Shown here piece by piece: positions 7,790-64,000 of a stretch of 64,000 bases of DNA. The stretch is from Dehalococcoidia bacterium (GTDB lineage Bacteria; Chloroflexota; Dehalococcoidia; Lucifugimonadales; UBA3495), in assembly GCA_965205185.1 (NCBI GenBank), contig OZ242043.1:967682-1031681 (forward strand), read 5' to 3'. The notes beneath the pieces were generated by a model. That model saw only the letters and a program-made list of their open reading frames with translations. It did no database searches and was not told where the DNA came from. Position numbers and translations under genes: made by a program. Every line of letters begins with the position of its first letter. Position 1 is the first letter of the stretch.

Positions 7790-7963
7790 AATCGAAAATA
7801 TGCCCCGCTTGATATTGCCCCGAAACCTTGATTCAGTCAGACCGTTCCCCTTATTTCCTTGATTTCCATACCGGCCTGACGACCGGCGCGTTGCAGAGTA
7901 TACTAGCTTGCTTGACGGATATGCTATGCTTGACCAGAAAACTTGGGTTTTGGAGTATGCGGT

Positions 7964-9708: not shown

Positions 9709-9821
9709 TGGAAATTGCCTTGACCTCGAGATGCCACGTATTATGCAGGATTGCCAAAAAACCTTCAAAGGCCAAGTGTCACCAAATTCGGCGGATTCGC
9801 AAGAATCTTGAACTGCCGCCC

Positions 9822-16637: not shown

Positions 16638-16687
16638 AATTCCGACTCCTTTCCGGCCCCGGGACAGGTTTATTATAGCCGCGAGCG

Positions 16688-19444: not shown

Positions 19445-19447
19445 CCC

Positions 19448-20170
19448 CTAATCCTCCAGCGCGATCCGCAGCCGCTTGTTGATCCGCCCCTTGCTTTCAT
19501 GCCCCACCACCCGGATCCGCCCCACCTCGGTCGTGTTCCCCACGTGCGTGCCGCCGTCCGCCTGCACATCCAGCCCTTGAATATCAATCGTCCGCACCTC
19601 CGTGATATTCTTGGGCAACAAATTGATCTTCGTCCGGATCAAATCCGGGATTTGTTCCGCCGCCTCCCGCGGCAGGTTTGCCGTCAGCACCGCCCGCGCC
19701 GCCGCCACTTCCGCATTGATCTTCGCCTCTACTTCCTCGGCGAAATCCGCCGACATCCGTTCCAGCTCGAAATCCATCCGCGCCTCGCCCGGCTGCATAT
19801 TCCCGCCGGTCACCAACGCCCCGTAATCCCGCCACACCACGCCGCAAAGGATATGGAGCGCGGTATGGGTCCGCATCAGCCGGTAGCGCCGCGCCCAGTC
19901 AATCCGCCCCGACACCCGGCTCCCCACCGCCGGCCCGGCGCCATCGCCGCCGCCCTCGAGCAGATGCCACAACTCGCCCCCGTCGCGCTTGATCCCCGAC
20001 ACCGCGAACTCCCGCCCCCCGGCCAACAGGGCCCCGACGTCCGGCGGCTGCCCCCCGCCCCCGATGTAGAACGCCGTCCGGTCCAGGGCCACCCCCGCAG
20101 CCCCCGCCGCGGTAACCGTAGCGTCAAACTCCCGCATATAGCTATGATTATGGAACAATAGTTCAGTCAT
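19448..20170 (-). CDS. alaX: Alanyl-tRNA editing protein AlaX-type
   Basis: Start at the ATG at 20170 ('MTELLFHNHSYMREFDATV'). 'HTALHIL' and 'DGGTHVGNTTEVG' zinc/editing-site motifs. Confidence 0.8.
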   Translation of the reverse strand: MTELLFHNHSYMREFDATVTAAGAAGVALDRTAFYIGGGGQPPDVGALLAGGREFAVSGIKRDGGELWHLLEGGGDGAGPAVGSRVSGRIDWARRYRLMRTHTALHILCGVVWRDYGALVTGGNMQPGEARMDFELERMSADFAEEVEAKINAEVAAARAVLTANLPREAAEQIPDLIRTKINLLPKNITEVRTIDIQGLDVQADGGTHVGNTTEVGRIRVVGHESKGRINKRLRIALED

Positions 20171-21585: not shown

Positions 21586-21635
21586 AATTCATCCTGATCT
21601 TGTCGGATCATCCTGAGCTTGTCGAAGGATGATCC
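21586..21635. repeat. REP-like hairpin element (CATCCTGAGCTTGTCGAAGGATG family)
   Basis: Inverted-repeat arms CATCCT/AGGATG. Related copies lie at 32111-32143 and, in tandem, at 59445-59618. Confidence 0.75.
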
Positions 21636-32110: not shown

Positions 32111-32143
32111 CAATTCATCCTTCGACAAGCTCAGGATGAATTG
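32111..32143. repeat. REP-like hairpin element (CAATTCATCCT-11 nt-AGGATGAATTG)
   Basis: Perfect 11-bp inverted arms. It is the reverse complement of the 21586-21635 unit. Confidence 0.8.
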
Positions 32144-36972: not shown

Positions 36973-39237
36973 ATGATAACCATAGCCCGGTTGCCCGCCG
37001 CCATAGCCATCGCCATAATCATCACTGCCGCCCTAGCCATCGGCCTGTCACTGTCATTGGGCAAAGCCCAGTCCAGTCCCGGCGCCGCCCCGCCCACCCA
37101 GGATTCCACCCCCCAGCCGCCGCCCCCGGCGACGTTCCCGCCCAGAGCCGCAGGCAACGCCGCCCAGACCGGCCAGGCAGGCGAACTGCTCTGGAGCTAC
37201 AAAACCGAGGACTATCAGCCCATTTCAGTGACCAACGGCGTGCTGTATGGGTATGGATATGTAGACCTCAAGCATTATCTGTACGCCGTAAACCCGGCCA
37301 CCGGCGAACTGATTTGGCGCTTTCAGACCGGCGGCAGAGTATCCGCGCCCGCAGTGGCTAACGGATTAGTGTATGTCCGGTCTGAGGACAGCTTCGTATA
37401 TGCCTTGTACGAGCAAAACGGCGAACAGCTCTGGCGCTACCGGGCGGTGGGGGGAAATATTTCCTTGTCTCCCTTAGTATACGGCGGCACCGTGTTCGTA
37501 GCGGCAGGCAGTTTTATTTATGCACTGTCTGCTGATACTGGAGATGAAATCTGGCGTTATAACGCCGATGAAACCGGCTCGCAGTCAGATTTCCAATTCA
37601 CGGCACAAGCGGCATCCGATGGTTTTCTGTATGCCGCCGTTAATCGCTATCTGATCGCATTGGATGCGGTTACTGGCTCGCTGCACTGGCAGTACTCAGG
37701 ATATGCTGGTGGATCCCTCTTGGTGTATGATGGCGTAGTGTACGCGAGTCCGTATGCCGTTGACGGATCTACCGGCAAACATCTATGGGATATGGGTTAC
37801 GTAAATTATTACGGCCCTGTGTCGAATGGGGTAGTTTATGGCATTAGTGGGGCTGTATATGCGATAGACGCAGTTACCGGAAGCTTATTATGGACATACC
37901 CATCGGCGGATGGGTATTTCTTTCTGCCTGTGGTATCAAAGGGCATAATCTACACTGCTTCATCGAATTCAGTGTATGCGCTGGACGCAGACACCAGTGC
38001 CCTGCAATGGCGTTGGGTAGCCGATGAGAATGAGTACCTACATGGGTTTGGGATGGCAGACGGTGTGGTATATGTTTGGTCAGAATACGTCGTGTCTGGG
38101 ACAGTGGGATACCATGTATATGCCATATCCACCGTCGAAACGCCCCCGCCCTCGCCAACACCTACCTCGACTCCCCGCCCCGCGCCGACGAACGTTCCCG
38201 CCCGGCCGCCAACGCCAACCATCGCGCCCACCCGCACCCCAGATGTCACTCCTACCCCCCGCCCAACGCCTATGCCCGACGAACCGATAATAAATTTCCA
38301 TGCATCCCAAACGGAAGTAATAACCGGCGAACCGGTAACGCTCACCCTGTCGGTAGCGAACTCGATCCGAAAACCGGATATGACCCTGCAACTGGTATTG
38401 CAACTGCCCGCCAACTGGTCCGCCAGCGGCGAGGGCATTGGCGAATCTTGCTTTTCCCAATGCAATGCCACCTATAAAGTGCCTACCGGCGAAAGCCGGG
38501 ATTTCCAGTTGACCGCGATTTCCAGGCAGCCCGGAACGGCCCGCATCGACAGCCGGATGGAATGGTACTTCGGCGCCGACCTAGATAACTACGGCGCTAA
38601 ATCGGAATCGCTGACGCTGAATGTAGTCGACCGGGATCCGCCTAATGTGAACCTGCACGCCACCCAAACCGAGGTAACTTTGGGCGAGCCAATCGTGCTG
38701 AACCTGACCGCCGCCAACCCCATCACCAACCCGGAAGCAACCTTGCAACTGGTGTTGAAAGCCCCTTCCGGGTGGTCGGTTAGCGGCGCAGGTTTCGTTC
38801 AGTCATGCACCGGGCAGTGCATCGCAACCTATCCAATAGCCCCCGGCGAGCAACAATCGATCAACATAAATATGCTGCCCAACCAGCCCGGATTATTTTT
38901 TGTCACCGGCGATCTAACCTGGTATTTCGGGAACGACCGGGAAATCGCCGGCAACAAATCCGTATCCTTGGATCTGAACGTCGCTCCGCCCGCCCCCACT
39001 GCGACACCCATACCCCCGCCCTCGCCGACTCCCACGCCCACACCCACGCCCGTAACCCAAGCCGCCGCGCCCGACAGCGGCGGGAGCAATGGCGGTTGCG
39101 GCGCCCCTGCCAACGGTGGTGGCGGCGATTTGGGGATGTTGGGCTTGATGGTTTTGCCTCTGCTGGGGCTGGTTGGGTTGGGGGCGCGGCGGCGGCGCTG
39201 GATGCGTCTTGGCTCTGCTGGTGGTTCATCGATCTGA
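36973..39237 (+). CDS. Secreted PQQ-like beta-propeller repeat protein with two tandem ~115-aa Ig/CARDB-like domains and a C-terminal TM/Arg sorting-signal-like tail
   Basis: N-terminal TM, then repeated 'LYAxxxxTGxxxWRY' blades and Pro/Thr linkers. Two paralogous domains ('HASQTEVITGEPVTLTL...' and 'HATQTEVTLGEPIVLNL...'). The tail reads 'GGGGDLGMLGLMVLPLLGLVGLGARRRRW'. Confidence 0.8.
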   Translation: MITIARLPAAIAIAIIITAALAIGLSLSLGKAQSSPGAAPPTQDSTPQPPPPATFPPRAAGNAAQTGQAGELLWSYKTEDYQPISVTNGVLYGYGYVDLKHYLYAVNPATGELIWRFQTGGRVSAPAVANGLVYVRSEDSFVYALYEQNGEQLWRYRAVGGNISLSPLVYGGTVFVAAGSFIYALSADTGDEIWRYNADETGSQSDFQFTAQAASDGFLYAAVNRYLIALDAVTGSLHWQYSGYAGGSLLVYDGVVYASPYAVDGSTGKHLWDMGYVNYYGPVSNGVVYGISGAVYAIDAVTGSLLWTYPSADGYFFLPVVSKGIIYTASSNSVYALDADTSALQWRWVADENEYLHGFGMADGVVYVWSEYVVSGTVGYHVYAISTVETPPPSPTPTSTPRPAPTNVPARPPTPTIAPTRTPDVTPTPRPTPMPDEPIINFHASQTEVITGEPVTLTLSVANSIRKPDMTLQLVLQLPANWSASGEGIGESCFSQCNATYKVPTGESRDFQLTAISRQPGTARIDSRMEWYFGADLDNYGAKSESLTLNVVDRDPPNVNLHATQTEVTLGEPIVLNLTAANPITNPEATLQLVLKAPSGWSVSGAGFVQSCTGQCIATYPIAPGEQQSININMLPNQPGLFFVTGDLTWYFGNDREIAGNKSVSLDLNVAPPAPTATPIPPPSPTPTPTPTPVTQAAAPDSGGSNGGCGAPANGGGGDLGMLGLMVLPLLGLVGLGARRRRWMRLGSAGGSSI

Positions 39238-39438: not shown

Positions 39439-40134
39439 ATGAAATGCGGTAACTGCCAACAAGGCATTGCTGTGATGTGGAACTCCGTTAAGGAACCTTT
39501 GCGCTTCACTTCTGAAGGAAATGAAAGGCAAGGATGGCAGATGTACACAGTAGTTTGCCCTGAATGCGATTATCCACATTGCAAGTTTGTTCAAGGATCC
39601 TACGATTTTTATGAGAGGGTATTGATTTTGAGCCGCGAAGGACGAACAATCTATTCTCACTTTGCAGATGCCTCGTCTCCTGAAGTTGAAAATGAATTGC
39701 CGAGCGAAATGGCAGACATCTCAAAAGATTCCAAAGAAGCTCGTGCTGTATTGCCGCATAGCGCCAATGCATCTGCGGTGTTATCTCGGCGAGCGTTGGA
39801 AACCATTTTGATAAAACAAGGGTATAAAGGTAAAAGTTTGGGCGATCTGATCAAAGAGGCACATAAAGAAGAAGATAAAGACAGGATTTTGCCCCTCAGT
39901 ATCAGGAAAAGTTTGCATATAATCCGGGAGTGGGGGAATTTTGCGGCTCACGGGATCCGAAATACGGAGACGGAAGAAAGCGTGAATGTGGAAGAATGGC
40001 AAGCCGAGTGGTGTCTGAGGGTCGTTGAAAAACTGCTTGAGCATTACTATATTGGCCCAGCCAAAGATGCTGAACAGTTGGAAGCAATCAACGAGAAACT
40101 ATCTGAAGCAGGGAAACCTCCAATAGAATGGTAG
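39439..40134 (+). CDS. Zinc-ribbon + DUF4145 domain protein
   Basis: Low-GC ORF with N-terminal 'CGNC...CPEC'. The C-terminal 'AVLSRRALETILIKQGY...IREWGNFAAHG' matches the DUF4145 pattern, a domain often attached to restriction or abortive-infection proteins. Confidence 0.65.
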   Translation: MKCGNCQQGIAVMWNSVKEPLRFTSEGNERQGWQMYTVVCPECDYPHCKFVQGSYDFYERVLILSREGRTIYSHFADASSPEVENELPSEMADISKDSKEARAVLPHSANASAVLSRRALETILIKQGYKGKSLGDLIKEAHKEEDKDRILPLSIRKSLHIIREWGNFAAHGIRNTETEESVNVEEWQAEWCLRVVEKLLEHYYIGPAKDAEQLEAINEKLSEAGKPPIEW

Positions 40135-52986: not shown

Positions 52987-53038
52987 ACGGGCATCTTGGG
53001 AAGGGCTTAATTTGGGGGATTTGGGTTTATGCGGGGTT

Positions 53039-54481
53039 ATGAGCAGACCTAATTTGGCGTATGGGGACGGGCAACTGGGGTTGTTTACGGACCTGTATGA
53101 GTTGACGATGGCGCAGGCGTATTTCCGGCAGGGGATGGTGGCGCCGGCGACTTTCAGTTTGACGGTGCGGGGTTATCCGCCGGATCGGGGGTATTTGGTG
53201 TCGGCGGGGCTGGAGGATGCGCTGGATTATCTGTCGGGGCTGCGGTTTGACGGGGAGGCGGTGGGGTATTTGCGGTCGTTGGGGATCTTCGGGGCGGATT
53301 TTTTGGAGTTTTTGCGGGGGCTGCGGTTTACGGGGGGCGTGCGGGCGATACCGGAGGGGCGGCTGTTTTTTGCGGATGAGCCGGTGCTGGAGGTTACGGC
53401 GCCGATTGTTGAGGCGCAGTTGGCGGAGACTTATGTGATCAATCAGTTGAATTTGCAGACGACGCTGGCGACGAAGGCGGCGCGTTGCGTGTGGGCGGCG
53501 CGGGGGCGGGGGATCGCGGATTTTGCGTCGCGGCGGACGCAGGGTTCGGATGCGGCGATGAAGATGGCGCGGGCGAGTTATATTGCGGGGTTTGGGTCGA
53601 CCAGTAATGTGCTGGCGGCGAGGCAGTACGGGATACCGCCGGCGGGGACGATGGCGCATTCGTTTATATCGAGTTTTCCGTCGGAGTTGGATGCTTTTCG
53701 GGCTTATGCCGATTGCTTTCCCGACCGGACGGTGCTGTTGTTGGATACTTATGACACTTTGGCGGGGGCTTGGAATGCGGTGGCGGTGGGGAAGGAGCTG
53801 GAGGCGGCGTATCCTGATGATGCGGGGCGGCGGCTGGTTGCGGTGCGGCTGGATTCGGGGGATTTCGGGGAGTTGAGCCGTAGGGTTAGGCGGGTGCTGG
53901 ATGATGCGGGGCTGGGGTATGTGAAGGTGCTGGTTAGCGGGGGGTTGGATGAGTATGCGATGGAGGGGCTGGCGGAGGGGGGGGCGCCTATTGATTTGTT
54001 CGGGGTGGGGACTAAGGCGGGGGTGTCGGCGGATGCGCCGTGGTTGGATATGGTGTATAAGCTGGTGGGTTTTGACGGGCGGCCGGTGATGAAGTTGAGC
54101 GAGGGGAAGGTTTCGTTGCCGGGGGCGAAGCAGGTTTTCCGGCGGCGGGGGGGTATGCCGGAATTGGATTCGGATTCGGGGGAGGGGTTGTCGGGGGATG
54201 TTATCGGGCTGGAGGGGGAAGTTGGGCCGGCGGGGGCGGAGGCGCTGCTGCGGGAGGTGATGGTCGGCGGGGAGCGGACGGAGGGGCCGGCGACGGCGGG
54301 GGAGTTGCGGGAGCGGTTTAGGGAGGAGTTTGCGGCGTTGCCGGAACGGTTTAAGGTTTTGCGGCGGCCGCCGCGGTTTCCGGTGTCGGTCAGCTCGCGG
54401 TTGCAGCGTTTGACGGCGGAGACGCGGGCGGCGGCGGAGTTGGCTAATGTTTCGGGCGAGTCGGGTCGGGGTGGGAGGTAG
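53039..54481 (+). CDS. pncB: Nicotinate phosphoribosyltransferase
   Basis: Start at the ATG at 53039. 'LFTDLYELTMAQAYF', 'DFASRRTQG' and 'GTMAHSFI'. Confidence 0.85.
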   Translation: MSRPNLAYGDGQLGLFTDLYELTMAQAYFRQGMVAPATFSLTVRGYPPDRGYLVSAGLEDALDYLSGLRFDGEAVGYLRSLGIFGADFLEFLRGLRFTGGVRAIPEGRLFFADEPVLEVTAPIVEAQLAETYVINQLNLQTTLATKAARCVWAARGRGIADFASRRTQGSDAAMKMARASYIAGFGSTSNVLAARQYGIPPAGTMAHSFISSFPSELDAFRAYADCFPDRTVLLLDTYDTLAGAWNAVAVGKELEAAYPDDAGRRLVAVRLDSGDFGELSRRVRRVLDDAGLGYVKVLVSGGLDEYAMEGLAEGGAPIDLFGVGTKAGVSADAPWLDMVYKLVGFDGRPVMKLSEGKVSLPGAKQVFRRRGGMPELDSDSGEGLSGDVIGLEGEVGPAGAEALLREVMVGGERTEGPATAGELRERFREEFAALPERFKVLRRPPRFPVSVSSRLQRLTAETRAAAELANVSGESGRGGR

Positions 54482-54488: not shown

Positions 54489-55796
54489 ATGGGGACGCCT
54501 AATTTTGCGAACCGGACTTTGTATTACGGGGATAATCTGCCGGCTTTGCGGCGGATGAATAGCGAGACGGTGCATTTGATTGCGACGGATCCGCCTTTCA
54601 AGAAGCAGCGGGGGTTTTTCAGCGATGCCGGGGGGTATGATGATCGTTGGACTTGGCAGAGGGATATTCTGGGGCTGGATCGTAAAGGAAATGCGGTAGC
54701 GGAAAATCATGATGATTGGGTTGACCAGATTCAGGATGATTGGCCGGGGGCTTGGATGGTTATTGCGGCGGCGCGTAGCACTTATGGCGATGATATGGGG
54801 GCTTTTCTGTGCTGGCTTGGGGTGCGGTTGATGGAGCTGCGGCGGATCTTGCGGAATGACGGCAGTATTTATATTCATATAGACGAAACGGCGGTTCACG
54901 ATGATGCGGGGTTGGTGTATTGGCCGAAACGGGGTTCGGTGCCTCAACAAAAGCGGTATGTTGATGAAAATCCGGGTACGCCGGTAACGGATGTTATTGA
55001 TGATCTAGGGCCGTTGGGGGCTCATGCGCGGGAACGGACGCGGTATCCGACGCAGAAGCCTTTGGCGTTGTATGAGCGGATTATACGGGCGTCGAGTAAT
55101 CGGGGGGATGTGGTGCTGGATCCGTTTTGCGGGTGCGCTACTACGCCGGTGGCGGCGGAGCGTTTGGGGCGGCAGTGGGTGGGGATGGATCTTTGGGAAC
55201 AGGCATACGATAAAGTTGCCAGCCGTTTGCGGGAGTATGGGATCTTGGTTGACAACCCGGAGTTGGATGGGGCGGTTAATGAAAACGGGATGATGCGGTT
55301 TAACGAGTACCGGCTTACTTTGATTGATAATAAGGATAAGGGGGAGGAGTTTCCGGCGCGGACGGATGATAATGAAGTGGCGGCGCCGGCGCTGAATTTG
55401 CGGCGTCCGCGGCCTACGGAGCCTTGGCAGCAGTTGAGTAATGCGTTGATCCGGCGTATTTTGGTGGCGGCGCAAGGGCGGAATGGGTTGGTGGGGTGCG
55501 CTGGTTGCGGGCGGGCGCTGGAGGCGGATTTCTTTCATTTGGATCAGATCAGTCCTAAGTCGCAGGGGGGCGAAAACTATATTACTAACCGGATATTGAT
55601 TTGCGCTCCTTGCAATAGCCGGAAGTCGGATACCAAGACGCTGAAGGGGTTGCAGAATGATAACCGGCGGGAGAGGTGGATGAAGGATCGGAAGTTGGCG
55701 GAGGAGATGCAGTCGCTGGCGCGGATGCGGGCGGAGTGGGTGCGGGATCATTGGGATACGGAGCAGTGCCGGGAGTTTATTGCGCGGTTGCAGTAG
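54489..55796 (+). CDS. Beta-class (N6_N4_Mtase) DNA methyltransferase fused to a C-terminal HNH nuclease domain; methyltransferase core unusually short
   Basis: Motif IV 'IATDPPF', 'YPTQKPLALYERII' and motif I 'VVLDPFCGCATT'. C-terminal 'CAGCG...HLDQISPKSQGG...CAPCNSRK' (HNH). Confidence 0.8.
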   Translation: MGTPNFANRTLYYGDNLPALRRMNSETVHLIATDPPFKKQRGFFSDAGGYDDRWTWQRDILGLDRKGNAVAENHDDWVDQIQDDWPGAWMVIAAARSTYGDDMGAFLCWLGVRLMELRRILRNDGSIYIHIDETAVHDDAGLVYWPKRGSVPQQKRYVDENPGTPVTDVIDDLGPLGAHARERTRYPTQKPLALYERIIRASSNRGDVVLDPFCGCATTPVAAERLGRQWVGMDLWEQAYDKVASRLREYGILVDNPELDGAVNENGMMRFNEYRLTLIDNKDKGEEFPARTDDNEVAAPALNLRRPRPTEPWQQLSNALIRRILVAAQGRNGLVGCAGCGRALEADFFHLDQISPKSQGGENYITNRILICAPCNSRKSDTKTLKGLQNDNRRERWMKDRKLAEEMQSLARMRAEWVRDHWDTEQCREFIARLQ

Positions 55797-55938
55797 CGGG
55801 GATTGCAGGGTTCTTGGTTTGGCTGGAATGGTGGCATAGGCGGGGCGGGTGGGTGCGGGGGATTGTGGGTTGGGTGGGAATGATGGCAGCGGGGGATTGC
55901 GGGGGGGGGATGGCGAGTTTGCTTGAAAGGGGTTGATT

Positions 55939-57861
55939 GTGAAGACGGTTGTTTGTATGAAGTATGTTCCGGTGATTGCGCGGATGCGGTTTGATTATGA
56001 GGCGCGGACGATTGTGCGGGAGGGTGTGCCTTCGGAGGTGAACGGGTTTGATTTGCTGGGGGTGGTTCGGGCGGTGGAGTTGAAGTCAGGGGATGATGAT
56101 GAGGTGGTGGTGTTGACGATGGGGCCGCCAGGGGCGCGGGAGGGGTTGGTGCATTGTTTGGCGTTGGGGGCGGATCGGGGGGTGCTGGTTACGGATCGGG
56201 CGTTGGCAGGGAGCGATACTTTGGCGACAGCGCGGGCGCTGGCGTTGGCGTTGGGGCGGGAAGGGGCGGATTTGATTATCTGCGGGCGCAACAGCACGGA
56301 CGGGGAGACGGGGCAGGTGGGGCCGGAGTTGGCGGAGTTGATGGGGCTGCCTCATGTGGGTCATGTGCGGCGTTTGGAGTTGCGGGAGGATCGGCGGGCG
56401 GCGGTGGTGGAGCGGATAACGGATGAGGGGTATCAGACGCTGGAGTGCGATTTGCCGGCGGTGATTTGCGTTACGGAGGGGGTGGCGCCGGAGTTGTTTC
56501 CGAACCGGCAGCAGATGGAGGAGGGGGCGGGCAAGCCGGTGGAGGAGGTGTCGTGCGCTGAGTTGTCGGGGGATCCGCTGTTGTTCGGGGCGGCGGGTTC
56601 GCCTACTTGGGTGAATGAGATCCGGCTGGTGGAGCCTAACCGGCTGGGGGTTATGTTGCAGGATACGGCGCCGGGGGAGGCGGCGCGGCAGATCGCGGAG
56701 TCGGTGCGGGGGCGGCTGGCGGAGCTGGCGGCGGCGGGGCCGTCGGCGGGGGGGGATGATCGGCGGGTGTTGCCGCGGTATCCGGGGGTTAGGGAGCGGA
56801 GCGTTTGGGTGGTGGCGGAAAATGCGCGGGACGGGCTGGCGCACGTTACTTTCGAGATGCTGGGGAAGGCGCGGGAGCTGGCGGGGGTTACGCGGAGCGA
56901 GGTTGCGGCGGTGGTGATCCGTCCGGGGGCGGGTTACGGGGGGGATAGGGACGGGGGGTTGGGCGGCGGTTTGGGTTGGGGGGAGTCTAGTCTGGCGGTG
57001 GGGAACGCTTATGCCGGGGCGTTGGCGGCGGCGGGGGCGGATCGGGTGCTGGCGTTGGATAGCGGGCCTTTGGGGCCGGTGTTCGGGCGGGGGGTGGGGG
57101 CGTGTTTGGCGGAGGCGGTGTTGCGGGAACGGCCTTACGCGCTGCTGTTTGCGTCTACGGCGGATGGGCGGGATTTGGCGGCGCGGCTGGCGGCGCGGCT
57201 GGGATTGGGGCTGACGGGGGATGCGATTGATTTGGAGATTGACGATGATGGGCGGCTGGTGCAGCTGAAGCCGGCGCTGGGGGGGAATGTGGTGGCGCCG
57301 ATTTTGTCGCGGACTTTGCCTAATCTGGTTACTTTGCGGACGGGGCTGCTGTCGCCGGCGGCGCCGGATGGGGGGGCGACGGCGGCGGTGGAGGTATTGG
57401 CGGGGGGCGATGGGGTTGGGGGGGGGCGGGAGGTTCGTTTGGTTGGGGAAGTGTTGGCGGAGGATCGGGAGGGTTTGGCGTTGGCGCGGGCGCGGGTGGT
57501 GTTGGGGCTGGGGATGGGCGCGGGGGAGGGGAATGTGGGGATGTTGCGGGATATGGCGCGGTCGGTGGGGGCGTCGGTGGCTACAACGCGGGATGTGGTT
57601 CATGCGGGATGGCTGCCGCAACAGTTGCAGGTGGGGATCAGTGGGCGGACGATTGCGCCTACAGTGTATATTGCGGTGGGGATACGGGGGGCGTTTAATC
57701 ATACGGTCGGGTTGCAGCGGGCGGGGGTTATTGTGGCGGTGAATCAGAATCGGCGGGCTACGATATTTCGGTCGGCGGATTTCGGGGTGGTGGGGAGTTG
57801 GGAGGAGTATTTGCCGCCGTTGCTGGAGGCTTTGGGTCCGGTGTTGGCGGGGTTGGGGTAG
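55939..57861 (+). CDS. etfBA: Fused electron-transfer flavoprotein beta+alpha subunits (EtfB-EtfA single polypeptide)
   Basis: The GTG at 55939 gives 'MKTVVCMKYVP' (EtfB N-terminus). 'LIICGRNSTDGETGQVGPELAEL' is EtfB. The C-terminal half 'YIAVGIRGAFNHTVGLQRAGVIVAVNQN' is EtfA FAD-binding. The junction is Gly-rich. Confidence 0.8.
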   Translation: MKTVVCMKYVPVIARMRFDYEARTIVREGVPSEVNGFDLLGVVRAVELKSGDDDEVVVLTMGPPGAREGLVHCLALGADRGVLVTDRALAGSDTLATARALALALGREGADLIICGRNSTDGETGQVGPELAELMGLPHVGHVRRLELREDRRAAVVERITDEGYQTLECDLPAVICVTEGVAPELFPNRQQMEEGAGKPVEEVSCAELSGDPLLFGAAGSPTWVNEIRLVEPNRLGVMLQDTAPGEAARQIAESVRGRLAELAAAGPSAGGDDRRVLPRYPGVRERSVWVVAENARDGLAHVTFEMLGKARELAGVTRSEVAAVVIRPGAGYGGDRDGGLGGGLGWGESSLAVGNAYAGALAAAGADRVLALDSGPLGPVFGRGVGACLAEAVLRERPYALLFASTADGRDLAARLAARLGLGLTGDAIDLEIDDDGRLVQLKPALGGNVVAPILSRTLPNLVTLRTGLLSPAAPDGGATAAVEVLAGGDGVGGGREVRLVGEVLAEDREGLALARARVVLGLGMGAGEGNVGMLRDMARSVGASVATTRDVVHAGWLPQQLQVGISGRTIAPTVYIAVGIRGAFNHTVGLQRAGVIVAVNQNRRATIFRSADFGVVGSWEEYLPPLLEALGPVLAGLG

Positions 57862-57980
57862 GGGTCGGGACGTTATTGTTGGGGGTTTTGGGCGGGGTTA
57901 GGGCGAGTTGGCGGGGGCGGGCGTTTTTATTACGGGGGCAATTTGGGGGTAATTCGGACGATGGCAGGGGGCAGGTTGCT

Positions 57981-59489
57981 ATGGGCGGGCATTTCTATTA
58001 TGGGGACTGCTTGGGGGTGATGCGGGATTATGTTGCTGATGGTTCGGTGGATCTGATTTATTTGGATCCGCCTTTTAAGTCGGATGCGGATTATAATATG
58101 TTGTTTGCCGGGCCGGATGGGGCGGTTGCGGCGGGGGCGGAAGTGCGGGCGTTTGGGGATACTTGGCGGTGGGGGGCGGAGGCGCGGGGGGAGTTTGATC
58201 AGGTTTGTCGGGATGTTCCCGATGTGGGGGTTAAGCTGGAGGCGATGCGTAGTATTGTGGGGGAGTGCGGGATGATGGCTTATCTTTCGCGGATGACGGT
58301 TCGGTTGGTTGAGATGCGGCGGGTGTTGAAGCCTGGCGGTAGTATTTATTTGCATTGCGATCCGACGGCTAGTCATTATCTTAAGGTGATGATGGATGCG
58401 GTGTTTCATCCGGTTGGGGGGCGTTTGCGGAGTGAAATTATTTGGCGGATTGGGTGGGTGTCGGGTTATAAGACGCGGCGGCGGGGGTGGATTCGGAATC
58501 ATGATACTATTTTGTATTATGCTTTGGGGGACAAGTTCACTTTTAATAAGGAATATATTGCATATCCTGACGGCTACCGGCGGCGGGATGGTAGTTTGCC
58601 TACGGGTTTGGGGATACCGATTGAGGATACTTGGAATTGCAATCGGGCGGATGTGCTGGATTCGATAATGATCAAGAGTTTTTCGCGGGAAAAGTTGGGG
58701 TATCCGACGCAGAAGCCGTTGGATTTGTTGCGGCGGATTGTGCGGGCTTCGAGCAATGCGGGGGATGTGGTTTTGGATCCGTTTTGTGGGTGCGGGACGG
58801 CTTGTCATGCGGCGGCGGAGTTGGGGCGGGGTTGGATTGGGATTGATGTTACGGCGTTGGCGCTGCCGGTGTTGCGGGCGCGGTTTGATGCGTCGGGGAT
58901 GGGGGCGGATTTCGGGGTTACGGGGATGCCGGCGTCGGCGGAGGATTGGCGGGTTTTGGCGGGGAGTAATCCGATGGAGTTTGAGCGGGCGGCGATGGGT
59001 TTGATTGACGGGTGCCGTCCGTATTCGCAGCGGCGGGGCGGGGGGGATGGGGGGATTGACGGGCTGATTCCGGTGGCGGTGGGGCGGGATCGGTGGGGGT
59101 ATGTGGCGGTGTCGGTGAAGGGGGGCCGGCAACTTAATCCGGCGATGGCGCGGGATTTGCGGGGGACGGTGGAGCGGGAAAGCCGGAATGGGGTGGTGGC
59201 GGGGGCGCTGGTTACGGCGTATCCGGTGACGGCGGGGATGCGGCGGGAGTTGGACGGGGCGGGGGATGTCGATATTTTGGGGCGTTCTTGGCCTAAGTTG
59301 CAGGCGGTTACGGTGGAGGAGGTTTTGGAGCGGAAGGGGCGGGGGCTGCCGGAGTTGTCGCTGCCGTTGCAGGCGGCGGCGCCGTTGGCGCGGGTGGGGC
59401 TGGCGCGGGGGGAGGTTGGGGGGCAGTACCGGCTGGAGGGGGGTGTCCTTCGACAGGCTCAGGATGATCCTTCGACAGGCTCAGGATGA
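57981..59489 (+). CDS. Beta-class DNA methyltransferase fused to a C-terminal Mrr-like PD-(D/E)xK nuclease domain
   Basis: 'IYLDPPF', 'SEIIW', 'YPTQKPLDLLRRIV' and 'VVLDPFCGCGT'. C-terminal 'GGDGGIDGLI...YVAVSVKGG' (Mrr_cat pattern). The last codons and the stop lie inside the REP array. Confidence 0.8.
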   Translation: MGGHFYYGDCLGVMRDYVADGSVDLIYLDPPFKSDADYNMLFAGPDGAVAAGAEVRAFGDTWRWGAEARGEFDQVCRDVPDVGVKLEAMRSIVGECGMMAYLSRMTVRLVEMRRVLKPGGSIYLHCDPTASHYLKVMMDAVFHPVGGRLRSEIIWRIGWVSGYKTRRRGWIRNHDTILYYALGDKFTFNKEYIAYPDGYRRRDGSLPTGLGIPIEDTWNCNRADVLDSIMIKSFSREKLGYPTQKPLDLLRRIVRASSNAGDVVLDPFCGCGTACHAAAELGRGWIGIDVTALALPVLRARFDASGMGADFGVTGMPASAEDWRVLAGSNPMEFERAAMGLIDGCRPYSQRRGGGDGGIDGLIPVAVGRDRWGYVAVSVKGGRQLNPAMARDLRGTVERESRNGVVAGALVTAYPVTAGMRRELDGAGDVDILGRSWPKLQAVTVEEVLERKGRGLPELSLPLQAAAPLARVGLARGEVGGQYRLEGGVLRQAQDDPSTGSG

Positions 59490-59618
59490 ATGATAAGGCC
59501 GGGATGTTCGACAAGTTCAGGATGATCCTTTACAGGCTCAGGATGAGTGATAAGGCCGGGATGTTCGATAAGCTCAGGATGATCCTTCGACAAGCTCAGG
59601 ATGAGTGATCTGGCGGGG
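59445..59618. repeat. Tandem array (about 5 units) of REP-like hairpins TCCTTCGACAGGCTCAGGATGA
   Basis: Lies at the convergent junction of two methyltransferase genes. Same family as 21586-21635 and 32111-32143. Confidence 0.8.
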
Positions 59619-59669
59619 TTGGGGTTTGTTAAGGTGCGTTGGGGCGCGGGTGTTGTCCGGTTTTGTGGG

Positions 59670-61400
59670 TTATAGGCCCATTGGGTTTTGGCGGGCGTAG
59701 GCTTGGCCGTAGATTTGCATGGCTTGGGCTTGCGCCCAGTCGAGATTGATTAGGTCGTTGATGGTGTCGACCATTAGTTCGCCGGCGTGGGCGATTTCTT
59801 GGCGGTATTCGGCCAGCGCAACGCGGCGGTTGTTTTTGCGGAGGTTGTGGTAGGGGCACATTGGGGCGCGGTTTTGGATGTCGTTGCTGGCGCCGGTGTT
59901 TTGTTTGCTTTTGGGGGCGATGTGGTCTAGGTGGAAGTTGCGGGTGGTTTGGATGATGCGGCCGTCGGGGCGGCGGTTGGCGAAGCCGCAGCACCAGGCT
60001 TGGTAGTTGGATAGTTTTAGCAGTTCCTCGAGCATTTGGGGTTCGGGGATGATGCTGGCGGGGACTTTGAAGGTGCGTTCCGGCAGGCGGAAAACGGGGG
60101 GCGGGGTTTCGGTTTCGGGGGATGTGCGTTTGGGTAGTTGGTTGGGGCCGTAGATGGTTACGGTGGGGTTGTCGGGGGTTACTTGCTGGCCGGGGGCGGC
60201 GTGGTCGGCGCAGGTTAGCAGGGCTAGATTGGGTTTGTTGAATTGGCGCTTGAATACGGTCCAGGCGCGGGGTTGGATGTCGCAGGCGATCCATTGGCGC
60301 TGGAGGCGCTCGGCGGCTACGGCGACATAAGCGCAACCGGCGAAACAGTCTAGTACGACGTCGCCGGGGTTGGTGGCGGCGGCGATTATGCGCTCGGCGA
60401 GGGCTACGGGTTTTTGGGTGGGGTAGCCGGTTTTTTCTTTGCCGCGGGCCGCGGGGATGTCGTTCCAGATGTCTTGTAACTTGACGCCTTTGGCGTTATC
60501 CAGATATTTTTTGTAGCGGAAGGGGGAGCCGGGTTTTGTTTGCACTAATAGGCCGGCTTGGTACATTTGCTCCATACGTTTCGGCTCGAATCGCCAGGCG
60601 CGGGTTAGGCCGCGAAATTCGTAGGGCTTGTTGCCGCCGGATTCGTTGGTGCAGGGGAAGGTTTGATAGCGGCCGCGGGCATCCTGTTGGTCGTAGCCTT
60701 TTTCGATATACTCCGGGTCATAGGGCTGATATTGGATGTTGTATTTCGCTTTTTCGGATTTGGCGTGCCAAAAGATGGTGTCGTGGATGTTGCCTAGTCG
60801 CTGCCGGGCCAAGTTGTGCTTTTCTTGACGGCGCAGGAAGGATATTTCGTTGCGGAAGTTTTTTTGGCCGAAAATGGCGTCCAGCAGTTGGCGGAGGTAT
60901 CCGTTGGCGGTGTGGTCGCAGTGCAGGAAAAGGCTGCCGGTGGGTTTGAGTATGCGGCGGATTTCCAGTAATCGGATTGCCATATAGCAGAGGTAAGCCG
61001 CCGTGCTGTCGGAGTGGGTATGACGGGTTACTTCGATGAGGGCGGCGATTTGTGAGTAATTTTGTTGGAGTTCCAGTAGCCAGGACTCGTGGACGTCTTT
61101 GCCCCAGTTCCAGAAGTCTTTGTAGGCGGTTTCGGGCCAGTCGATGCCGGCTTTTTCGGCGTCGGTCTTATTTTGTATTCCCCAATGGGCGAGCAGGCGG
61201 AACTCGTTGGCGCGTTCCGCGTCGGTCAAGGGCGGCTTGAGGGGGTCTTTATCGCGCTGGTTTTTGCGGCCGAAGGTTTCGTTTTTGGCGAAGGGCGGGT
61301 CGATGCATACGAGGTCGATGCATTCGTTGTTGAGGGATTGGAGGAAGTCTAGGTTGTCGGCGATGTATACGCCGCGGTTGATGGCGTTGAAGTCGGGCAT
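59670..61400 (-). CDS. Beta-class DNA methyltransferase fused to a C-terminal HNH nuclease domain (copy A)
   Basis: 576 aa. 'VCIDPPF', 'FRNEISF', 'GYPTQKPVALAERII' and 'VVLDCFAGCAY'. C-terminal 'WCCGF...HLDHIAPKS...CPYHNLRK'. Confidence 0.85.
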   Translation of the reverse strand: MPDFNAINRGVYIADNLDFLQSLNNECIDLVCIDPPFAKNETFGRKNQRDKDPLKPPLTDAERANEFRLLAHWGIQNKTDAEKAGIDWPETAYKDFWNWGKDVHESWLLELQQNYSQIAALIEVTRHTHSDSTAAYLCYMAIRLLEIRRILKPTGSLFLHCDHTANGYLRQLLDAIFGQKNFRNEISFLRRQEKHNLARQRLGNIHDTIFWHAKSEKAKYNIQYQPYDPEYIEKGYDQQDARGRYQTFPCTNESGGNKPYEFRGLTRAWRFEPKRMEQMYQAGLLVQTKPGSPFRYKKYLDNAKGVKLQDIWNDIPAARGKEKTGYPTQKPVALAERIIAAATNPGDVVLDCFAGCAYVAVAAERLQRQWIACDIQPRAWTVFKRQFNKPNLALLTCADHAAPGQQVTPDNPTVTIYGPNQLPKRTSPETETPPPVFRLPERTFKVPASIIPEPQMLEELLKLSNYQAWCCGFANRRPDGRIIQTTRNFHLDHIAPKSKQNTGASNDIQNRAPMCPYHNLRKNNRRVALAEYRQEIAHAGELMVDTINDLINLDWAQAQAMQIYGQAYARQNPMGL

Positions 61401-61455
61401 TTTTGCTCCAGTCGCGGGCGGGTTTGGCGTTTATTATAGCATAGGCGTTTGCCGG

Positions 61456-62721
61456 TTAAGGTGTTTTGGGGCGATTGGAATCCTTTCCGGGGATGGCGCT
61501 GGCGGGGACTTTGAATTGGCGTTTCGGCAGGCGGAAATTTCGGGGCGGGGGTTGGGGTTGGGGGGTTGTGCGGGTGGGTAGTTGGTTGGGGCCGTGGATG
61601 GTTACGGTGGGGTTGTCGGGGGTTGCTTGCTGGCCGGGGGCGGCGTCGTCGCAATGCAGGGGCGGGTTTAGTAATTCGGTTTTGGTGAATTGACGCTTGA
61701 ATACGGTCCAGGCGCGGAGGTTTAGATCGCAAGCGGTCCATTGGCGGTTCAGGCGTTCTGCGGCGATGGCGGAGTAGGCGCAGCCGGCGAAGCAGTCTAC
61801 TACAACGTCGCCGGGGTTAGTGGTAGCGGCGATTATGCGCTCGGCGAGGGCGATGGGTTTTTGGGTGGGGTAGCCGGTGCGCTCGGTTGGCAGGCGGCCG
61901 ACCGGGGGGAAATCGGCCCACCATGATTCCGGGATTTTGCCGCGGTCGCGGGAATGGTCGATGTTATCCTCGTTCAGTTGTCCGCCTATTTTGGCGGAAC
62001 TTTTGGCTTGCTGGGTATTCAATTGTTGGTAGGGGATGCGTACCGCATCTCGGTTGAAAGTCCATTGTTCGGATTTGGAGTACCAGAATATAGTGTCGTG
62101 TTTGCGGGGGAACCATCGGCGGGTGTTGCTGGGGCCGGTGTAACACCAGGCGATTTCGTTGCGGAAACCGGGGGAGCCGTTTTCGCCATTGCCGAAAATG
62201 GCGTCCAGCAGTTGGCGGAGGTATCCGCCGGCGGTGTGGTCGCAATGGAGGAAAAGGCTGGCGGCGGGTTTGAGGATGCGGCGGATTTCGATCAGGCGGA
62301 TGGCCATATAGCATAGATAGGCCGCCGTGCTTTCGGAGTGGATGTAGCGGGTGGTTTCGATTAGTTGGTTGACGGCGGGGAAGTGGCGCGCGATGCTATT
62401 GAGCCAATCCTCGTGGATGTCGTTTTCCCAGGACCAGGCGTCATGGTAGCCTCCGCTGGTCCTGGTGCCGTAGGGCCAGGCGATTTCGTTGTTGGCGGCG
62501 TCTTTGGGGACGTGGATGCCCCATTCGTCGAGGAGGCGTTTTTCGTTGTTGATTTCTTGGTGGGATAGGGGGGGCTTTATTTTGTCGGCGGTGAAGGTTT
62601 CGTATTTGGCGAAGGGGGGGTTGATGGTTACGAGGTCGACGGTGGCGTTGTTGATGGCGCGGAGGAAGGCGAGGTTGTCGGCGATGTAGACGCCGCGGTT
62701 GATGGCGTTGAATTTGGGCAT
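61456..62721 (-). CDS. Beta-class DNA methyltransferase, paralog lacking the HNH domain (copy B)
   Basis: Start at the ATG at 62721 ('MPKFNAINRGVYIADN'). 'VTINPPF', 'FRNEIAW' and 'GYPTQKPIALAERII'. It ends just after the conserved linker '...FKVPASAIPG'. The upstream 229 residues of listed ORF 61456..63408 are an out-of-frame read through copy C. Confidence 0.8.
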   Translation of the reverse strand: MPKFNAINRGVYIADNLAFLRAINNATVDLVTINPPFAKYETFTADKIKPPLSHQEINNEKRLLDEWGIHVPKDAANNEIAWPYGTRTSGGYHDAWSWENDIHEDWLNSIARHFPAVNQLIETTRYIHSESTAAYLCYMAIRLIEIRRILKPAASLFLHCDHTAGGYLRQLLDAIFGNGENGSPGFRNEIAWCYTGPSNTRRWFPRKHDTIFWYSKSEQWTFNRDAVRIPYQQLNTQQAKSSAKIGGQLNEDNIDHSRDRGKIPESWWADFPPVGRLPTERTGYPTQKPIALAERIIAATTNPGDVVVDCFAGCAYSAIAAERLNRQWTACDLNLRAWTVFKRQFTKTELLNPPLHCDDAAPGQQATPDNPTVTIHGPNQLPTRTTPQPQPPPRNFRLPKRQFKVPASAIPGKDSNRPKTP

Positions 62722-62741
62722 TATTTCGCTCCGGTCGTTTT

Positions 62742-64000
62742 TTATAGGCCCATTGGGTTTTGGCGGGCGTAGGCTTGGCCGTAGATTTGCATGGCCTGGG
62801 CTTGGGCCCAGTCGAGGTTGATTAGGTCGTTGATGGTGTCGACCATTAGTTCGCCGGCGTGGGCGATTTCTTGGCGGTATTCGGCTAGGGGGATGCGGCG
62901 GTTGTTTTTGCGGAGGTTGTGGTAGGGGCACATTGGGGCGCGGTTTTGGATGTCGTTGCTGGCGCCGGTGTTTTGTTTGCTTTTGGGGGCGATGTGGTCT
63001 AGATGGAAGTTGCGGGTGGTTGGGATTATCCGGCCGTCGGGGCGGCGGTTGGCGAAGCCGCAGCACCAGGCTTGGTAGTTGGATAGTTTTAGCAGTTCCT
63101 CGAGCATTTGGGGTTCGGGGATGATGCTGGCGGGGACTTTGAAAGTGCGTTCCGGCAGGCGGAAAACGGGGGGCGGGGTTTCGGTTTCGGGGGATGTGCG
63201 GGTGGGCAATTGGTTGGGGCCGTGGATGGTTACAATGGGGTTGTCGGGCGTGACTTGCTGACCGGGGGCGGCTCGGTCGGTGCAGGTTAGCAGGGCTAGA
63301 TTGGGTTTGTTGAATTGGCGCTTGAATACGGTCCAGGCGCGGGGCTGGATGTCGCAGGCGATCCATTGGCGTTGGAGGCGCTCGGCGGCTACGGCGACAT
63401 AAGCGCAACCGGCGAAACAGTCCAGGACAACATCGCCGGGGTTGGTGCTGGCTTTGATTATGCGCTCGGCGAGGGCTACGGGCTTTTGGGTGGGGTAGCC
63501 GGTGCGTTCATTGGACGATGGCGATAGTAGTTTGATGTCGGTCCAGATGTCATTGACTTTTACGCCTATGTCGGCTTCCGGGGGTCTGAGTATTGACGGG
63601 GTGTTTCCGGTAGACCAATGAATCAGTCCGGCTTCGGCGAGGGCGTCCAGCCGCTCCTTGATGCTTTCGATTTCTTTGAATCCGGGGATTGCGTTGTTAT
63701 GGATCCAGTCGGCTAACTCGCCGGTTCTAGGGACGCCCCAATGGCGGCCTATTTCGGTGGGGTTGTAACCCCGCCAAGGTTGCCCGGATTCTCCGGTTCG
63801 TGTTATTCCTGCCGCAGTTAGGGGGACTCGGGTGGGTTTGGTGTTGGCGGCGGCGCTGTGTATCGGGCGCCAGGTGGGGGCGTCGGTTTTAGCGTATTGG
63901 AGGATTGAGTCGTGGGTGTTTCCCCATTTGTTCCCGGTGTTTCTGCCGGGGGAGCGGCCCCATATTATTTCGGCCTTGAAATTGTCGGGGGCGAAGACGG
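62742..64000 (-). CDS. Beta-class DNA methyltransferase fused to a C-terminal HNH nuclease domain (copy C), 5' end beyond the window
   Basis: My own translation continues in frame upstream of listed ORF 62742..63209 ('...FKAEIIWGR...ERTGYPTQKPVALAERIIKASTNPGDVVLDCFAGCAY...') to the window edge. The HNH module is nearly identical to copy A. Confidence 0.8.
   Translation of the reverse strand, partial: VFAPDNFKAEIIWGRSPGRNTGNKWGNTHDSILQYAKTDAPTWRPIHSAAANTKPTRVPLTAAGITRTGESGQPWRGYNPTEIGRHWGVPRTGELADWIHNNAIPGFKEIESIKERLDALAEAGLIHWSTGNTPSILRPPEADIGVKVNDIWTDIKLLSPSSNERTGYPTQKPVALAERIIKASTNPGDVVLDCFAGCAYVAVAAERLQRQWIACDIQPRAWTVFKRQFNKPNLALLTCTDRAAPGQQVTPDNPIVTIHGPNQLPTRTSPETETPPPVFRLPERTFKVPASIIPEPQMLEELLKLSNYQAWCCGFANRRPDGRIIPTTRNFHLDHIAPKSKQNTGASNDIQNRAPMCPYHNLRKNNRRIPLAEYRQEIAHAGELMVDTINDLINLDWAQAQAMQIYGQAYARQNPMGL

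Follow-up and report, generated by a model that had tools for sequence, protein, structure and literature searches.

Beta-class DNA methylase genes with fused HNH or Mrr-like domains in a Dehalococcoidia operon: candidate single-chain restriction-modification enzymes

Introduction

The combined restriction enzymes of Types IIC and IIG mostly join an N-terminal PD-D/EXK nuclease to a gamma-class methylase, with one named exception, BtgZI, in which an N-terminal alpha-class methylase is followed by a C-terminal PD-(D/Q)XK nuclease (PMC4081073). In Type IIG enzymes the specificities of restriction and of modification change together (PMC4081073). That review mentions neither a beta-class methylase nor an HNH fusion, the term "beta-class" not being present in it, and in a second paper, on adenine methylases, HNH domains appear only with RAMA-domain fusions. 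The present work concerns a stretch of 64,000 nucleotides (nt) from the genome of a Dehalococcoidia bacterium, taken to be an associate of sponges or other marine invertebrates (contig OZ242043.1; hereafter the window), of which a 9.5-kb cluster at 54.4-64.0 kb holds five DNA methylase genes, termed M1 to M5. Four of these carry a fused nuclease domain, namely a C-terminal HNH domain in M1, M3 and M5 and a C-terminal Mrr-like domain in M2; M4 is without a nuclease domain. An earlier reading of this stretch, made without database searches (the sequence-only reading), had described the known Type IIC/IIG enzymes as gamma-class methylases with an N-terminal PD-D/EXK domain, which agrees with the review except for BtgZI.

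On balance it appears probable that the intact members of this cluster (M3, M5 and probably M2) act as solitary single-chain restriction-modification enzymes. This is suggested because the catalytic residues of the nuclease are invariant and the ratios of nonsynonymous to synonymous substitution rates (dN/dS) are low, because the nuclease module alone has been lost repeatedly with the methylase kept, which is the classic decay path of restriction-modification systems, because a constant nuclease is paired with swappable target recognition domains (TRDs), as in the logic of Type IIG enzymes (PMC4081073), and because no partner gene accompanies them. Taken together, M1 to M5 are most likely one-protein restriction-modification enzymes at various stages of duplication, specificity swapping and decay.

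Results

Methylase class and families

All five genes match the Pfam family PF01555 (N6_N4_Mtase) at 87-132 bits, against a gathering score of 26.7, in the places that the sequence-only reading had assigned to them. The motif order which it described is likewise present in the alignment of all copies, with (D/N)PPF near the N-terminus followed by a variable region, YPTQKP and D.F.G.G, as in beta-class enzymes. Matches to the methylases by sequence in the PDB include RsrI, CcrM, MboIIA, DpnA and PvuII, and NCBIfam adds generic methylase labels only. No defence-system-specific model of PADLOC was matched by the methylase genes, and their scores against the CcrM equivalog NF050803 (45-77 bits) lie below its cutoff of 830. 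An AlphaFold2 model of M3 was obtained from an alignment of 50 sequences with a mean predicted local distance difference test score (pLDDT) of 86.8. When this model was compared with the PDB using Foldseek, EcoP15I Mod was placed first (4zcf, E = 7.6e-18), with 6k0w and 7dsu also among the Mod matches, and was followed by H. pylori Mod, RsrI, MboIIA, CcrM and M.BceJIV. As EcoP15I Mod comes first, the M3 methylase is predicted to be Type III Mod-like.

The cluster had been taken for an array of five paralogs, but the genes fall into three families (M1, M2 and the M3-M5 group), which share about 27-38% identity, and this only within the methylase blocks. Only M3, M4 and M5 are, by their sequences, recent tandem duplicates. 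Of these, M3 and M5 appear intact, while M4 is an HNH-deletion derivative, and M1 is not intact either, having neither a recognition domain nor the catalytic His. The same array is found in a sister genome, L003 (ENA ERZ25068369 contig_1, 3.97 Mb), at 94-98% DNA identity. The frame of M5 is still open at the window edge, with its first ~175 amino acids (aa) outside the window; its L003 ortholog is intact with 593 aa.

HNH domains of M1, M3 and M5

A clear HNH match was obtained for M1 (PF01844 at 31.9 bits and PF14279 at 26.9 bits), and M1-type HNH domains also match the HNH regions of IscB and Cas9d in NCBIfam. As whole proteins, M3 and M5 score 21.0 and 21.3 bits with PF01844, just below the gathering score of 21.4; a scan of the M3 domain by itself gave 23.4 bits. 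The HNH domains that the sequence-only reading had assigned to these three genes can therefore be retained, the borderline cases being backed by the score of the isolated domain, by invariant residues, by the predicted fold and by structural matches at weak E-values. Fifty diverse members of the M3 family share W469, C471 (of the pair C470/C471), G472, D492, H493, N510, C515 and N519 without exception, and the conservation of the HNH domain in this family is on a par with that of the methylase motifs. In an AlphaFold2 model of the isolated C-terminal module of M3 (pLDDT 87.3), a beta-beta-alpha core with pLDDT above 90 bears H493, N510 and N519. All of the top 50 PDB neighbours of this module found by Foldseek are HNH nucleases, with Cas9 HNH, EcoKMcrA, Cap5, PacI, ScoMcrA and IscB at the top. 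The catalytic set D492-H493, N510 and N519 is present on the predicted fold in both M3 and M5, while M1 has Gln in place of the catalytic His. Relative to its L003 ortholog, the HNH domain of M3 has a dN/dS of 0.07, indicating strong purifying selection. Since the HNH domain is as conserved as the methylase motifs, its catalytic and metal-ligand residues are invariant and its dN/dS is this low, we infer that the nuclease of the M3 family is functional and not vestigial.

A search of 1.84 billion representatives with the linker-plus-HNH module of M3 alone yielded 110 clusters (50% identity), in which C-terminal modules of ~490-640-aa proteins are mixed with many shorter proteins or fragments. 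Because it finds only these 110 clusters, the M3-type HNH module represents a narrow clade.

M2 and its Mrr-like domain

The C-terminus of M2 is below threshold for both Mrr_cat (PF04471, 14.3 bits, cutoff 21) and NA-iREase1 (18.4 bits, cutoff 27), and the Mrr-like domain found no match in the PDB by sequence. The Mrr-like assignment of the sequence-only reading nonetheless gains support from full-length homologs of M2 (~50% identity, >90% coverage), which carry PF04471 and PF22722, and from D356, D360 and K380, which are near-invariant in the M2 family. At position 378, Q is found in 67 and S in 46 of the 114 members, the window copy having S. M2 is full length relative to its own family and has a dN/dS of 0.18. 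This family crosses phyla (Sphingomonas, Limnochorda, Zixibacteria, Saccharibacteria, Clostridiales) as proteins of ~470-500 aa with PF01555+PF04471(+PF22722), and the Sphingomonas homolog is a solitary gene amid housekeeping genes. Its specificity appears to be fixed, as the recognition region is conserved within the family.

Duplication, cassette exchange and nuclease loss in M3, M4 and M5

The DNA of M3 and M5 is 92.5% identical over the 5' 535 nt and 97.6% identical over the last 761 nt, while the central 435-486 nt show no similarity detectable by blastn and are set off by sharp block boundaries. M4 has the same conserved blocks as M3 and M5 at 69-84% DNA identity, and the TRD cassette of M3 is without DNA similarity to M4 or M5, in contrast to its two flanks, for which the identity is 82-98%. 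It had been proposed from the sequence alone that the recognition region is unrelated among the copies; this holds for M3, M4 and M5 with their mosaic structure, but not for M1, in which the region is deleted rather than divergent. The duplicated unit includes the leader, about 45 nt of the M3 leader being common to the leader upstream of M5 in L003.

Between the window and L003, the copies of M5 are 97.5% identical in DNA and the M3 orthologs 94.5% overall. The synonymous divergence (dS) between the M3 orthologs is 0.24-0.30 in the conserved blocks as against 0.11 in the TRD, for which dN/dS is 0.08. These values point to ongoing gene conversion, which keeps the conserved 5' and 3' blocks similar, since dS is higher in these blocks than in the TRD and since the 3' blocks of M3 and M5 resemble each other more than the M3 orthologs do.

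Block identities are also discordant across the wider M3 family. The backbone blocks of P0003 are 90-98% identical to those of M3 with a TRD of 15% identity, and P0046, P0047, P0063 and P0065 have a TRD 74-76% identical to that of M3 beside an HNH domain of 34-45% identity. This discordance shows that TRD cassettes move between divergent backbones. No simple-sequence repeats of the kind forming phase-variation tracts were found within the methylase genes, and an inversion switch of the shufflon type was ruled out, as the region is without inverted repeats.

The homology of M4 to M3 and M5 stops at the point where the HNH module would start, directly after ...FKVPASAIP and before the following G. 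Past this point the frame reads into the leader of the next unit, with KDSNRPKTP and a stop as its last codons, and the same tail is borne by 438-aa M3 alleles without HNH in other samples. M4 has accordingly lost its HNH module by deletion. With M4, these M3 alleles and the M2 homologs lacking an Mrr domain (P0150-P0152 and the copy in L014), the nuclease module has been lost repeatedly and independently while the methylase was kept, from which it may be surmised that the nuclease is costly.

Truncation of M1

Intact members of the M1 family have 551 aa with PF01555, PF01844 and PF14279. Compared with the intact copies in the related loci L004, L005 and L014, M1 shows an internal deletion of ~115 aa, which removes the HAWTK...NFKSEIVWR...HDxILFY block (motif VII/VIII) and most of the TRD. 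In addition, DHTA is changed to DETA, and FHLDH to FHLDQ (in FHLDQISP), by which the catalytic His becomes Gln. Among the 435-aa alleles of M1, P0398 has DH, and P0400 and P0401 have DQ; since P0398 still has the His, the deletion preceded its loss. The copy in L036 is a frameshifted pseudogene. The dN/dS of M1 against its L003 ortholog is 0.19, like that of NaPRT, ETF and TPR (0.22-0.26), and neutral decay of a pseudogene was rejected as the full story for M1 given this housekeeping-like value.

Insertion into a conserved operon

A search with the fused ETF gene returned 34 loci, nearly all from Dehalococcoidia metagenome-assembled genomes (MAGs) and many of them on complete chromosomes of 3-5 Mb; one lies in a bin which we take to be sponge-derived. 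The usual gene order in other species is TPR, NaPRT, ETF, PrpD/MmgE-like and two acyl-CoA dehydrogenase (ACAD) genes, with NaPRT directly adjoining ETF in 28 of the 33 further related species. The presence of an M1 homolog between NaPRT and ETF is confined to the window, L003, L004, L005, L014 and L036, the carriers including the nearest relatives of the window as judged by flanking-gene identity. M2 is limited to the window, L003 and L014, and M3-M5 are restricted to the window and L003, being found in none (0/33) of the other species. In most relatives a 453-aa PrpD/MmgE-like gene stands between ETF and the acyl-CoA dehydrogenases (~11830-13400 in L004-L037). Both the window and L003 lack this gene and have M2-M5 in its place (window 57861-64000).

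The methylase genes are lineage-specific insertions into the conserved NaPRT-ETF-PrpD-ACAD operon, followed by local tandem duplication, and not ancestral residents, because across the 34 species M3-M5 occur in none of the 33 others, M2 occurs in one, and NaPRT and ETF are adjacent in 28. By the gene order, M1 entered the operon of a sub-clade at the NaPRT-ETF junction and M2 came in after ETF, and an M3-type unit, consisting of a leader/promoter and a methylase-HNH gene, replaced the PrpD-like gene and was duplicated tandemly into M5-M4-M3. The intergenic sites of the NaPRT-ETF-PrpD operon are insertion hot spots. No target duplications or conserved ends were detected at the insertion junctions, either between filled and empty sites or in the flanks of family members, the sole shared element being the leader (~45 nt) that belongs to the duplicated M3/M5 unit.

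The GC skew of the methylase genes (0.32-0.48) is like that of their neighbours, while several lower-GC islands elsewhere in the window are unskewed. As the methylase genes carry the extreme strand skew of the host, they are old relative to these islands. The earlier view of them as long-term residents and no mobile island is thus borne out as regards host skew, age relative to the islands and their sharing with L003, but not as regards residence in the operon, into which the synteny places them as lineage-specific insertions.

Two further insertions were observed at the same operon junctions in other species. One is a gene of ~1 kb between NaPRT and M1 of L005 (L005:7337-8331), which contains a tandem CAGTTCAACGCCGAGCAAA(A/G) repeat; the other, a 296-aa open reading frame (ORF) after the PrpD-like gene of L006 (L006:13287-14177), resembles an insertion sequence transposase, a likeness by appearance and not by comparison with a family library.

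Distribution of the families and gene neighbourhoods

Among the matches listed for M1, M2 and M3 (the best 120 of each search), most are full-length, and every one stems from a metagenome, MAG or draft-genome assembly. Their annotations are generic (DNA methyltransferase), one M1-family member being labelled "DNA modification methylase/...McrA" by JGI. The M1 type is abundant in Chloroflexota metagenomes. Identities of 51-95% are found among the 120 best clusters of the M3 type (90% level), of which a single one falls short of full length. Most of these proteins are nameless entries from metagenomes or MAGs; the name "site-specific DNA-methyltransferase [Chloroflexota]" is given to one. The M3 family is well conserved (0.7-0.9) in three parts, namely the catalytic block at the N-terminus, the AdoMet block and the HNH domain, and poorly conserved (0.3-0.5) at residues ~190-315. 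An exact-sequence look-up of the window M3 and of P0134 returned no record.

The sequence-only reading had allowed that the homologs might prove to be phage methylases with inactive HNH remnants. The invariant HNH residues of the M3 family speak otherwise, and no fused phage, plasmid or viral form was found: matches in IMG/VR viral contigs are limited to the methylase part, with 35-48% identity, a coverage of >=80% of the query is reached by none of 50,697 phage records, and the single plasmid record out of 72,556 that reaches it (26% identity) ends before the HNH domain. The survey of gene neighbourhoods which that reading had called for showed solitary genes. No Res, helicase or separate restriction endonuclease gene adjoins the methylase genes in the window, L003, L001 or Sphingomonas, and neither the 52-64 kb part of the window nor the L003 locus (21.7 kb) contains a Res or helicase ORF.

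It was also observed that L001, a related Dehalococcoidia chromosome (OY282565.1), holds six Uma2-family genes (PF05685, putative endonuclease) in two groups of three, at 3520-6055 and 16216-20119. Two M3-type methylase-HNH genes are interspersed with them, in surroundings of housekeeping genes. Elsewhere in the window no further copies of the three methylase families, no PrpD remnant and no Uma2 gene were found.

Other features of the window

The coordinates of all features are collected in Table 1. At the position of the M2/M3 spacer, L003 has an extra 251-aa gene encoding HNH only (L003:11734-12489). The reading frame of M2 terminates within the tandem array built from the 19-nt repeat TTCGACAGGCTCAGGATGA. 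This repeat is dispersed, with nine occurrences against 0.02 expected by chance, including those at 21589-21626 and 32121-32139. An Rfam scan of the window detected no RNA family, and promoter and terminator scans gave counts no higher than in shuffled sequence.

Further methyltransferase genes of other classes lie at two places in the first third of the window, bringing the number of DNA methylase genes in the 64 kb to seven or more. The 309-aa methylase and the 299-aa ORF convergent to it have the appearance of a classical Type II restriction-modification pair that was acquired recently, and the 918-aa protein is a candidate for a conventional Type IIG/IIL-like enzyme. The DUF4145 gene adjoins an unskewed PQQ beta-propeller gene (36973-39237), and for this reason the stretch is probably another recent island.

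The plus strand of the window has a GC skew of mostly +0.3 to +0.5 and an AT skew of about -0.1 to -0.35 over ~32-64 kb, except in the unskewed islands. Over 1-28 kb the GC skew is mostly -0.08 to -0.27, except in an unskewed island at 8-10 kb, and the sign changes at ~28-32 kb. This asymmetry is independent of gene orientation; genes on both strands share it, and their amino-acid composition is shifted by it. L003 has the same skew, while the syntenic loci of the 33 other Dehalococcoidia species are near 0, the nearest being L014 at 0.12. No dnaA gene is present at the switch, where the genes encode a major facilitator superfamily (MFS) transporter, a MoCoBD enzyme and trehalose-phosphate enzymes. 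The skew has the appearance of a mutational bias that is linked to replication, specific to this lineage, recent and unusually large.

Table 1. Positions (in the window), strands and descriptions of the features discussed in the text.
Feature	Position	Strand	Description
Putative Type II methylase	8839-9768	-	309 aa; PADLOC PDLC03274, E = 2e-46; in low-GC (0.47) unskewed island 7943-9768
ORF convergent to the 309-aa methylase	7943-8842	+	299 aa; no family match
918-aa protein	16688-19444	-	gamma-class N6_Mtase PF02384, 39 bits; weak MmeI_Mtase and PADLOC REase_MTase_IIG; lower-GC, low-skew stretch
DUF4145 protein	39439-40134	+	matches PADLOC candidate defence gene PD-T7-4, E = 2e-9
NaPRT gene	53012-54481		interleaved with the methylase genes
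M1	54489-55796	+	435 aa; PF01555 + HNH; between the NaPRT and ETF genes
Fused ETF beta/alpha gene	55933-57861		interleaved with the methylase genes
M2	57981-59489	+	beta-class methylase with C-terminal Mrr-like PD-(Q/S)xK domain, GDGGIDG ... VSVK; 3' end enters dispersed repeat
Tandem repeat in convergent M2/M3 spacer	59449-59621		3 copies of a 57-58-nt unit built from the 19-nt TTCGACAGGCTCAGGATGA
M3	59670-61400	-	576 aa, predicted intact: N-terminal catalytic block, central recognition cassette, AdoMet block, linker, HNH
M3 HNH module	59673-60065	-	aa 446-576; FHLDHIAPKS ... NRAPMCPYHNLRK
M3 recognition (TRD) cassette	60431-60865	-	delimited by blastn block boundaries and family conservation profile
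M3 unit leader	61401-61455	-	extended -10-like TGCTATAAT at 61433-61441
M4	61456-62721	-	421 aa; NPPF; own recognition cassette ~61879-62190; HNH-deletion derivative
M5	62742 to >64000	-	methylase-HNH; recognition cassette ~63503-63988; HNH 62745-63137

Discussion

Proposed mechanism and points against it

If the intact members are single-chain restriction-modification enzymes, the central TRD of the Type III Mod-like beta-class methylase would read a specific DNA sequence, and methylation would probably be of N6-adenine, judging by the DPPF/NPPF motif. Unmethylated sites would be where the same TRD places the fused nuclease domain (the HNH of M3 and M5 or the Mrr-like PD-(Q/S)xK of M2, all C-terminal), and a single cassette swap would alter the specificities of methylation and cleavage together, as in Type IIG/MmeI-like enzymes. 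A Mod-like dimer might supply two single-strand-cutting HNH sites, sufficient for a double-strand break. M4 would then be an orphan methylase remaining after nuclease loss, and M1 a copy disabled in recognition and catalysis, yet still constrained. A broader proposal, which is advanced only tentatively, is that the M3/M5 type, together with the intact M1 type, could form an uncharacterised class of single-chain restriction-modification enzymes in which an exchangeable TRD directs both adenine methylation and HNH cleavage, probably as a Mod-like dimer. Such a class would be expanded in Chloroflexota, with arrays and gene conversion generating specificities, and M2 would be a parallel beta-class/Mrr version of it.

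A number of observations weigh against assigning a restriction-modification role to this cluster. Cleavage, its dependence on the TRD and the identity of the methylated base are all inferred, and a solitary enzyme of this kind would have to spare newly replicated host DNA. The HNH domain of M3 and M5 is an HNN-type variant scoring at the Pfam threshold, and the Foldseek matches of the isolated M3 domain are weak (best E = 0.01, TM scores of 0.3-0.44). Ser stands in place of Gln at the (Q/E)xK position in ~40% of the M2 family, the window copy included. The PADLOC labels obtained (MTase_II, MTase_III, orphan-methylase) are all generic. Finally, the M1-type TRD was lost while allele P0398 still had the catalytic His, and the constraint on M1 suggests that at least one member is kept for a role other than restriction-modification.

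Alternative explanations

The best-surviving alternative, which is nevertheless considered unlikely, is that these are orphan, epigenetic or housekeeping methylases in which the HNH and Mrr-fold domains are non-cutting DNA-binding or clamping domains, comparable to the C-terminal domain of CcrM, or protein-interaction modules. Such a role would suit solitary genes embedded in housekeeping operons, the presence of CcrM among the structural neighbours of M3 and the purifying selection on a TRD-less M1 with Gln for His, as well as a C-terminus of M2 which has Ser at the acidic/Q position and scores higher for the inactive nuclease NA-iREase1 than for Mrr_cat. It fits poorly with the conservation of residues serving catalysis rather than folding, which are invariant in the M3 family (D492-H493, N510, N519) and near-invariant in the M2 family (D356, D360, K380). 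The repeated clean loss of the nuclease module alone is also easier to understand if the nuclease is costly than if a DNA-binding domain is required, and the persistence of methylase-only derivatives implies that the methylase does not need this domain. Should the nuclease domains be non-catalytic, the cluster would be a set of orphan methylases of modest interest.

A selfish, homing-type origin is regarded as distinctly improbable. Here the HNH domain would cut empty intergenic sites, repair would copy the gene in, the methylase would protect occupied genomes and defence would be incidental. The presence/absence polymorphism at precise intergenic positions of the operon, with no integrase or transposase, could be understood in this way, as could the several copies scattered amid housekeeping genes in related genomes and an N-terminal region of M1 (135 aa) that is 85-91% identical between species with flanking genes at 75-83%. 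Yet the carriers of M1 are the closest relatives of the window by flanking genes, which fits one old vertically inherited insertion, and the array grew through local tandem duplication. Moreover, homing needs no variable TRD, the junctions show no target duplication or conserved ends, and no fused copies were found in IMG/VR or in the phage and plasmid records. These explanations partly overlap and are not fully exclusive, since restriction-modification genes are themselves selfish elements.

The last alternative, a modification-dependent nuclease of the Type IV-like, McrA/Mrr style that attacks differently modified foreign DNA beside a methylase of unrelated role, is hardly credible: the JGI McrA label on an M1-family member, the EcoKMcrA and ScoMcrA fold neighbours of the M3 HNH domain and the place of the M2 domain within the Mrr superfamily mirror the catalytic fold only, no modified-base reader (SRA, N-terminal McrA-type or winged-helix Mrr-N) was detected, which leaves the methylase TRD as the sole recognition module, and TRD cassettes varying beside a constant nuclease argue for targeting by the TRD.

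Comparison with known systems

The reading of M3, M5 and probably M2 as single-chain restriction-modification enzymes can be set against several described systems. Exchange of TRDs between alleles is established for the mod genes of Type III systems. Like the Type III Mod proteins (EcoP15I, Mbo45V, H. pylori), which are the best structural matches to M3, the enzymes described here are beta-class with a variable central TRD between conserved blocks. They differ in having a fused HNH-type nuclease and no simple-sequence phase-variation tracts, and as they have no Res (helicase-nuclease) gene they are not Type III systems. With the HNH nucleases KpnI, MnlI, Hpy99I, PacI, EcoKMcrA and Cas9/IscB the beta-beta-alpha-metal fold and the D-H ... 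N ... N/H motif are shared, but those nucleases lack a methylase fusion, and the M3 type has CC ... CxxH instead of CxxC ... CxxC. CcrM is likewise a solitary chromosomal beta-class methylase with a C-terminal extension and is a structural neighbour (6pbd); unlike in CcrM, the C-terminal domains are nuclease folds and the TRD of the M3 family is variable, and the equivalog scores are far below the cutoff.

At the domain level M1 (degenerate), M2, M3 and M5 resemble the Type IIC/IIG enzymes (MmeI family, Eco57I, BpuSI) in carrying methylase and nuclease on one polypeptide. Type IIC/IIG genes are also often solitary, and in them a shared recognition module diversifies specificity (PMC4081073), as is suggested here by TRD exchange. 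The Type IIC/IIG enzymes have an N-terminal PD-D/EXK domain, a gamma-class methylase (NPPY/F/W) and a C-terminal specificity domain, whereas in the present cluster an N-terminal beta-class methylase is followed by a central TRD and a C-terminal HNH or Mrr-like domain, the activity of which is predicted. The cluster thus departs from the typical build, which is not a strict requirement, as BtgZI shows. In BtgZI too the methylase is N-terminal and the nuclease C-terminal, and its Gln-for-Glu variant of PD-D/EXK recalls the M2-family consensus D...QVK; it is alpha-class, whereas M2 is beta-class with Ser and not Gln, and the two are likened by description and not by sequence.

No characterised precedent for these beta-class fusions is known, judging mainly from one 2014 review (PMC4081073), and a recent characterisation is possible. 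The suggestion of an under-described architecture in the sequence-only reading stands in so far as the methylase-nuclease combination is uncharacterised, but it is not rare in sequence databases, being visible in domain databases and numerous in metagenomes. If the proposed activities are correct, a beta-class/HNH branch would join the Type IIC/IIG-like enzymes, so far gamma-class (rarely alpha-class) with PD-D/EXK. The natural TRD swaps on near-identical backbones would then provide a scaffold for new or engineered specificities, possibly including nicking enzymes, and the cluster would help to explain the heavy restriction-modification load of symbionts of sponges and marine invertebrates. 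Whatever its function, the locus presents a compact life cycle of restriction-modification genes, with insertion, tandem duplication, specificity swapping, gene conversion, nuclease loss and decay. It is a variant of the combined-enzyme theme known from Types IIC and IIG rather than a new category of system.

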